Shown here in pieces: positions 12,832 to 13,827 of a DNA stretch of 64,000 nt. How positions within the stretch are numbered: position 1 is the first letter of the stretch; each line of letters starts with the position of its first letter. The notes beneath the pieces were generated by a model. The model was not told where the DNA came from. It saw only the letters and a program-made list of their open reading frames with translations, and made no database searches. The position numbers were made by a program, and so were the translations under genes. The stretch lies in NCBI RefSeq assembly GCF_030013595.1, contig NZ_CP122768.1. One strand, given 5' to 3'. This DNA is from Escherichia coli. GTDB lineage: Bacteria > Pseudomonadota > Gammaproteobacteria > Enterobacterales > Enterobacteriaceae.

Positions 12832-13827
12832 ATGAATGAATTTATAAAAGAACGGTTTTCGTATTTAGCAGATAATAAAAAAGAAAATGCCCCAGAGCTA
12901 AATGTTTCCTACGGTATCGATAAGAATTTTTTGTATGGTGCTGGCGTTTCAATTTCTTCCGTTTTGATTAATAATTCAGATATTAATTTTGTCTTTCATG
13001 TTTTCACTGATTATGTGGATGATGATTATTTAAAGTCATTTAATGAAACAGCAAAACAATTTAATACCTCAATTATTGTATATTTAATTGACCCCAAATA
13101 CTTTGCTGATCTGCCGACGTCACAGTTTTGGTCGTAGGCGACATACTTCAGGGTATTGTCTTTTGAATATCTGAGTGAAAGTATTTCCACACTGCTGTAT
13201 CTGGATGCCGATGTTGTTTGTAAAGGAAGCCTGAAACCTCTCACAGAAATTATATTTAAAGATGAGTTTGCTGCGGTCATTCCTGACAATGATAGTACTC
13301 AGGCGGCATGTGCAAAACGCCTCAACATTCCCGAAATGAATGGACGTTATTTCAATGCAGGCGTTATCTATGTCAATCTTAAAAAATGGCATGAAGCAAA
13401 TTTGACACCGTATTTACTCAAACTTTTACGAGGGGAAACTAAATATGGCTCTCTTAAATATTTAGATCAGGATGCGTTGAATATCGCATTTAATATGAAT
13501 AATATCTACCTTGCGAAGGATTTTGATACTATTTATACCCTGAAAAACGAACTTTATGATCGTAGTCATCGAAAGTATCAGCAAACCATTACCGATAAAA
13601 CAGTGTTGATTCACTATACAGGGATAACTAAACCATGGCATAGCTGGGCTGGATATCCGTCTGCATCATACTTTAATATCGCGCGTGAACAATCTCCCTG
13701 GAAGAAATATCCTCTTAAAGAGGCGCGGACTGTTGCAGAAATGCAGAAACAATATAAGCATCTGTTTGCCCATGGTGAGTATATAAAAGGCATAACTTCA
13801 TTAATTAAGTACAAGCTTAAGAAATAA
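12832..13827 (+). pseudogene. waaT: Outer-core GT8 glycosyltransferase (WaaT/WaaJ-like) interrupted by in-frame amber codon TAG at 13135..13137
   Basis: ORFs 12832..13137 and 13156..13827 share one frame; translation reads ...[43 protein letters not shown], collinear with the two flanking GT8 paralogs (WSIAMYFRF / WSYATFFRL); downstream piece starts at a TTG with no RBS. Confidence 0.75.

Follow-up and report, generated by a model that had tools for sequence, protein, structure and literature searches.

Escherichia coli B (BL21/REL606) carries a waaT gene disrupted by IS1, and only Glc I and Glc II are left in its outer core, which ends at Glc I-Glc II (PMC5221442, PMC8594841). Phage-selected waaT mutants of R1 strains have also been published (PMC12548472, PMC10368449). 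In strain TK001, the W269* mutant had a shorter core band and no longer showed the O-antigen band, with a manB frameshift in the same mutant as a confounder (PMC12548472); the phiX174-resistant mutant R33 of E. coli C is a second case (PMC10368449). Here, we describe an early nonsense allele of waaT in a 64,000-nucleotide stretch of E. coli contig NZ_CP122768.1, hereafter the window. It resembles the E. coli B case in that the same enzyme would be lost from a closely related locus, but the E. coli B lesion is an IS1 insertion in the R1-type locus of a laboratory lineage, whereas in the window a single-base change to a stop codon has hit an R4-type locus, and this lesion is found in public isolate read sets. 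With TK001 and R33, the window has in common a point knockout, with a shorter core and altered phage susceptibility predicted for the window. Those mutants, however, come from laboratory selection on R1 strains, and the W269* truncation is late, whereas the stop in the window is early (Y102*).

Codon 33 of rpoS in E. coli K-12 offers a likeness at the level of the single codon, because GAG, the amber codon TAG, a Gln codon, and TAT (Tyr) coexist there (PMC2700278 and references there). Both there and in the waaT series described below, an ancestral sense codon, an amber codon, and another sense codon one step from the amber are found, and Gln occurs in both. The rpoS series concerns a sigma factor in laboratory stocks, whereas the waaT series concerns an LPS glycosyltransferase in sequenced isolates, with an inferred direction of change. 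In Neisseria, the glycosyltransferase LgtC is switched by a homopolymer tract, whereas the waaT case is without a repeat tract. LgtC of Neisseria meningitidis (PDB 1GA8, 1G9R, and 1SS9), an α-1,4-galactosyltransferase of lipooligosaccharide, belongs to the same GT8 fold family as WaaT, and the DxD and HxxGxxKPW motifs of the two proteins align (E = 2e-15). The waaT stop is neither a recoding site nor a phase-variable repeat, and it does not mark the boundary of a split enzyme.

The interrupted gene occupies 12832..13827 on the plus strand, with an ATG at 12832, a TAA at 13825-13827, and 331 codons. The original prediction had described it as the second outer-core GT8 transferase of the locus, and the Pfam matches, the gene order, and the length of 331 aa with a tryptophan at position 269 identify it as waaT. 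In the waaQ operon it is flanked by waaO and waaY, with waaW beyond waaY, according to ORF order, NCBIfam matches, and syntenic RefSeq loci. Since the locus is R4 by order and typing, and since the 331 codons with W269 in the KPW motif match the published R1 waaT of strain TK001 (listed as p.W269* (331), PMC12548472), we assign the gene as waaT, encoding the Gal I transferase. By domain, position, and length, its product is a GT8 UDP-galactose:(glucosyl)LPS α-1,2-galactosyltransferase, the transfer activity being predicted. With Tyr102 restored, the protein matches PF01501 (Glyco_transf_8) over residues 24-273 (E = 1.6e-72) and PF08437 (Glyco_transf_8C) over residues 275-331, and the best matches among solved homologs, both GT8 enzymes, are 3TZT and LgtC, with E values of about 1e-15 to 1e-16. 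The metal/UDP-sugar motif DxD (D125-A126-D127, in the context LYLDADVV, 13204..13212) aligns with D103-I-D105 of LgtC, and the HxxGxxKPW motif is present as HYTGITKPW at codons 261-269 (13612..13638); both motifs lie 3' of the stop on the plus strand. The domain match and both motifs of the GT8 family are thus present, whereas a reading frame open through the catalytic domain is absent, and as judged from its sequence the waaT of the window is a GT8 pseudogene and not a functional family member. Two antisense ORFs (13026-13289 and 13120-13392) gave no family match.

The surrounding locus has the order waaQ-G-P-O-T-Y-W-X-L; next come waaC, waaF, and hldD, which are encoded on the opposite strand. 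Upstream of waaT, the intact waaO (11799..12815, plus strand; NCBIfam PRK15171, 610 bits, above cut-off) adds Glc II, predicted to be the terminal residue of the truncated core. Downstream on the same strand are waaW (14555..15583), the third GT8 gene, which is open and whose product adds Gal II onto Gal I; the GT25 gene waaX (15615..16382), an R4 marker; and the intact O-antigen ligase gene waaL (16422..17675), predicted to be left without an acceptor. The R1 strain ATCC 8739 has a GT2 gene (waaV) at the place of the GT25 gene of the window. In-silico PCR with published core-typing primers (PMC13293308) gave the expected 380-bp R4 product at 15424-15803, and the R1, R2, R3, and K-12 primers had no site in the window. 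Gene order, the GT25 waaX, and the 380-bp product therefore make this an R4 locus and not an R1 one.

The JUMPStart/ops leader of the waaQ operon was found at 8726..8764 (plus strand; Rfam RF01707, 51 bits), with an intact ops element (GGCGGTAG) at 8753-8760. Because the operon keeps an intact ops in its JUMPStart leader, polarity on waaY-waaL is probably limited, as would be expected from RfaH antitermination. The leader carries two clone-specific SNPs: 8676 G>T, between waaA and waaQ, and 8749 C>T, which lies 4 nt 5' of ops, turns a G-C pair of the JUMPStart stem into G-U, and abolishes a Dcm site (CCTGG>CTTGG). The latter change fits 5-methylcytosine deamination. At the distal end of the operon, the T-run of waaX at 16367-16373 has seven T residues in the window and eight in 28 of 28 loci checked, including a sister run and the genome with CAG at codon 102 that is described below. 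This T7 alters the last four codons of waaX (FFSLLK* to FFLF*) and may have arisen by slippage very recently or be an assembly error in the homopolymer; because T7 occurs in no other locus checked and may be an error, the frameshift was rejected as secondary decay following WaaT loss. A second contraction, T7>T6, affects the last codons of mtlR on the minus strand (~44335-44341), with the closest genome as the sole comparison. Together, the waaX and mtlR contractions suggest that the assembly may under-call long T runs.

The amber codon of waaT (TAG, 13135..13137, plus strand) is in frame with the ATG at 12832 and with the terminal TAA, so the ORFs 12832..13137 and 13156..13827 do share one frame, as had been claimed. 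The comparison with the paralogs of the locus also proved exact (WSIAMYF in WaaO, WSYATFF in WaaW, and WS*ATYF in WaaT), as did the placement of the stop, at codon 102, upstream of the catalytic D125-A-D127. Alignment with intact waaT alleles, the check proposed with the original prediction, gave the sense codon TAC (Tyr102) as the ancestral state. The change is therefore a single C>G transversion at 13137, TAC to TAG; the expectation of a single substitution was borne out, whereas the suggested TAT ancestor was not. Neither a homopolymer nor a Dam/Dcm motif includes the site. As a source of the C>G, a templated or quasi-palindromic hotspot was considered, and no template was found nearby. A 61-mer centered on the stop had no exact match among the 2,505 complete RefSeq E. 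coli genomes with waaT, all of which differ from it by at least one base.

Derived changes were polarized by comparing the window with its closest complete genome, that of the pig faecal isolate HCP5S3_I2 (NZ_CM149870.1), and with an outgroup. In the waa region the derived changes are 8676 G>T and 8749 C>T in the leader, waaT Y102*, waaW W272G, and waaC A312D. The W272G substitution (TGG>GGG, T>G at 15368) falls in the KPW of the HxxGxxKPW motif of WaaW, which is conserved in the homologs compared, and is found in none of the 2,525 complete genomes with waaW. The exact W272G protein occurs in 36 blocks of the wider collection, where waaT is full length in most places. Because waaT is intact in most members with W272G, that substitution is older than the amber codon, and its coexistence with intact waaT led us to reject it as decay after WaaT loss. 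The closest complete genomes, those of the pig isolates HCP5S3_I2 and LCP30S3_I5, both have an intact waaT and a waaW with K210*. In NZ_CM149870.1 this K210* is an independent amber mutation (AAG>TAG, at the equivalent of window 15182, position 25283 in the compared locus), and the gene is annotated as a pseudogene on account of an internal stop.

Another assembly, GCA_021649405.1, belongs to the same clone, with W272G, A312D, and a yibB marker in common with the window. At the start of its contig (1-94), the terminal part of an IS4-like, IS10-type ISVsa5 adjoins waaT at ~nt 815 (window ~13647). The contig covers the 3' part of waaT, and the gene has probably been knocked out here by an IS in a separate event within the clone. 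The ISVsa5 at waaT and the waaW K210* in relatives imply that the outer-core transferases have been hit repeatedly in this lineage. Polarized coding substitutions on the branch of the window comprise eight protein-changing and one synonymous; with unpolarized sites included there are 13 protein-changing (two of them nonsense) and two synonymous, compared with 5:5 on the branch of the closest relative. About half of the substitutions on the branch of the window are transversions. This pattern, which is statistically not strong, fits recent, little-filtered mutation in the clone. Clone-specific changes number 6 in the ~9 kb waa region vs ~7 in ~38 kb, by rough estimate a clustering of only ~3.6-fold, on which nothing further is built.

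Further carriers of the TAG were found by exact-sequence look-up of the 101-aa fragment among Logan assemblies, and the identical TAG is present in those of three independent runs: ERR5386556, ERR14362488, and SRR28759609. ERR5386556 has two differences from the window in 12.3 kb, and ERR14362488 has the TAG and both leader SNPs in common with it. The end of the ERR14362488 contig was considered as an IS junction and rejected, since it is plain waaT sequence. SRR28759609 shows 131 differences from the window in 17.5 kb and is therefore another, unrelated strain. Its outer-core genes are those of strain GN02461 apart from the TAG and a private P136S, and the flanking markers 12888 C and 14588 A give it a different haplotype from the clone. 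The P136S substitution is 100 bp 3' of the TAG (at the equivalent of window 13237). On sequence grounds, the TAG of SRR28759609 may represent either a recurrence of a rare C>G or a recombination tract of less than 1.7 kb (12888 to 14588).

Within the W272G group, codon 102 of waaT is found in three states: TAC (SRR19716107), TAG (the window and ERR5386556), and CAG (GCA_053637855.1). ERR14362488 counts as a further TAG member. The CAG (Gln) codon is present in GCA_053637855.1 and about 17-19 similar places, GCA_036246625.1 and GCA_036246605.1 being further CAG members, and 23 contigs encode the Y102Q protein. Over 20,993 bases, position 13135 (C vs T) and the T-run are all that distinguishes GCA_053637855.1 from the window, and because of this near-identity it carries every clone marker. 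A stop and a non-ancestral sense codon, one step apart, thus exist on the same haplotype, TAG vs CAG at 13135 only. CAG is one of the two sense codons that can be reached from TAG by a transition, and the computed chance that two random substitutions in 21 kb would share one codon is about 1e-4. The natural reading is that one change compensates for the other, and this requires the stop codon as the intermediate. We propose that TAC>TAG would have knocked out waaT and that TAG>CAG would then have restored the frame by pseudo-reversion to Y102Q in the most-sequenced branch, with the window preserving the null intermediate. On parsimony and the co-location probability, the history TAC>TAG>CAG appears the most likely one, and we hold it with somewhat better than even confidence. 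The GT8 enzymes compared differ at position 102 (Tyr, Ile, Ile, and Lys), so Gln102 is plausibly tolerated.

The order of events could also be the reverse, with TAG a young tip mutation from the Gln allele: TAC would have changed to CAG, by a double change or via CAC, and then CAG>TAG would have occurred, in which case the stop would still be a knockout. CAG is far commoner than TAG in the clone (20 or more assemblies vs about 3-5), CAG>TAG is a C>T transition and as such a common route to nonsense codons, and His102 (CAC) alleles occur in E. coli. This order, however, would have the codon hit three times, or by a double change plus a coincidence, with no other difference in 21 kb. No CAC codon was found on the clone haplotype: as a step to Gln, His102 was rejected because the two CAC contigs are both without the 12888T marker of the clone, and at least one of them is an R1-type locus. 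Moreover, SRR28759609, whose background has no CAG, directly shows the same C>G turning TAC into TAG. No other site in the 21 kb compared between the window and the CAG genome is informative for the direction of change. We regard an origin of TAG from CAG as possible but unlikely, and the order TAC>TAG>CAG as the better account.

If knockout and repair occurred in that order, waaT of this R4 clone may have passed through a cycle of loss and regain, of which the window would be the surviving off-state intermediate, a proposition for and against which we see about equal grounds. It leans on the IS-disrupted waaT in the clone, the waaW K210* of the closest complete relative, and the TAG in an unrelated strain. 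Were it true, LPS core truncation in wild E. coli would be a transient state, reversible under fluctuating selection (phage vs host/serum), and that reversible state would be reached by ordinary point mutation and not by dedicated phase variation.

Since three read sets that were sequenced and assembled independently, one of them from an unrelated strain, have the identical TAG, the stop is not an assembly error. That it might be a sequencing or assembly error, with waaT intact in the organism, could be suspected from the two homopolymer contractions that are private to the window among the compared sequences (T8>T7 at 16367 and T7>T6 near 44341); the C>G is, however, a substitution outside homopolymers and Dam/Dcm motifs, and we consider an error very improbable. 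The original prediction had drawn a parallel with laboratory-adapted strains, and to these we found no link: several read sets of public isolates carry the TAG, and a pig faecal isolate provides the closest complete genome. Taken as a whole, the data are best explained, with high probability, by Y102* being a real loss-of-function allele of waaT that arose naturally in an R4-type locus.

Seven contigs from seven unrelated samples stop 0-2 bases after waaT codon 101 (the equivalent of window ~13134-13136). They are without the clone markers, their ends are plain waaT sequence, and several are apparently metagenomes by contig name. Assembly-graph branches at a polymorphic codon in mixed samples would fit such contig ends at codon 101/102. 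An IS1 junction was rejected as their cause, because the IS1 in one examined strain sits at ~nt 654.

Translation of the window waaT would end after 101 of 331 residues, ahead of DxD and HxxGxxKPW, and because the stop lies upstream of DAD (125-127) and HxxGxxKPW (261-269) the WaaT product should be inactive. By analogy with the published waaT mutants, no Gal I would be added to Glc II without WaaT, and WaaW and WaaX would then lose their acceptor. The core should accordingly resemble that of those mutants, ending at Glc I-Glc II and carrying no O-antigen: WaaL could not attach O-antigen, given the attachment residue that we assume for the R4 core from general knowledge of R1/R4 cores, and the LPS would be rough. 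Such a rough state typically changes phage susceptibility.

These consequences would be avoided if the amber codon were read through by a suppressor tRNA or by programmed recoding, so that active full-length WaaT was made. Low-level natural read-through of UAG occurs in E. coli, and an amber suppressor that inserts tyrosine would give back the wild-type sequence of the protein. There is, however, no tRNA gene within the window; the stop is in none of the 2,505 complete genomes and is hence not a conserved recoding site; and Rfam found no RNA family in the waa cluster but JUMPStart, and none at the stop site. Within the window and the complete genomes compared, the hallmarks of programmed recoding or suppression that we looked for are thus absent. 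The presence of a sense pseudo-revertant in the clone also argues that the stop mattered, and read-through sufficient to supply active WaaT seems highly improbable.

The stop leaves two ORFs on the plus strand: an N-terminal remnant of 101 aa (12832..13137), which covers no more than the initial part of the nucleotide-binding GT-A fold and is without the DxD, and a C-terminal remnant of 223 aa with a TTG start (13156..13827), which is without the N-terminal third of the protein. An AGGG lies just 2 nt 5' of the TTG, a poor Shine-Dalgarno spacing that makes re-initiation at 13156 unlikely. That the 101-aa and 223-aa fragments form a functional split enzyme can be practically dismissed: both reading frames are open, and gene callers predict each of them with a GT8 Pfam match, but the break is inside the single GT-A domain (Pfam 24-273) and the second ORF begins with a TTG without usable Shine-Dalgarno spacing. 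The same 223-aa remnant follows many unrelated lesions, and it is therefore debris, not design.

The recurrence of that remnant reflects a gene that is often lost. The collection has the 223-aa fragment in 89 indexed blocks, and different lesions precede it in the ten places listed. Apart from Y102*, the waaT lesions comprise the nonsense mutations L85* (TTA>TGA) and Q76* (CAA>TAA), a 3-bp deletion creating TAA, three different 1-bp frameshifts, and insertions of IS1 and of a DDE-transposase element, with three IS insertions counted among other assemblies. IS1- and IS5-disrupted copies of waaT are also found among the complete genomes. In GCA_964036905.1, two LPS genes are disrupted, waaT by IS1 (leaving a 77-aa remnant) and waaL, which is split (222 + 195 aa). 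Loss of waaT is thus common and recurrent, and the amber of the window is therefore one more allele of that kind.

Taken alone, the amber codon would be a routine pseudogene call, an ordinary loss-of-function allele of an often-lost gene. Its predicted outcome, a strain that is rough and has a truncated core, matters for serotyping, for predicting phage hosts, and for typing of the LPS core, since the locus would continue to be called R4 by typing tools. The likely history of knockout followed by repair within one clone is a modestly interesting addition: public assemblies appear to hold three stages in a single clone, with waaT intact, knocked out, and repaired with a scar. If confirmed by a whole-genome phylogeny, this would be a clean natural example of the reversible loss of a phage-receptor or O-antigen-acceptor structure, and it would counsel caution in reading missense changes such as Y102Q as simple drift, since some would be scars of repaired nonsense mutations.

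Several further differences from the compared genomes were observed elsewhere in the window. At 57781, in a minus-strand gene at ~57200-58324 that is annotated as "type I restriction endonuclease" in NZ_CM149870.1, a nonsense change (AAA>TAA) private with respect to that closest genome cuts the 359-aa protein at ~residue 181. NZ_CM149870.1 has an IS200/IS605 tnpA between rpmG and mutM (locus 15130-15809) that is absent at window 5711-5740. In the repetitive part of a YadA-like adhesin gene on the minus strand (~40080-40400), differences and small indels are dense relative to both comparison genomes, a cluster that could be repeat-mediated variation or misassembly.
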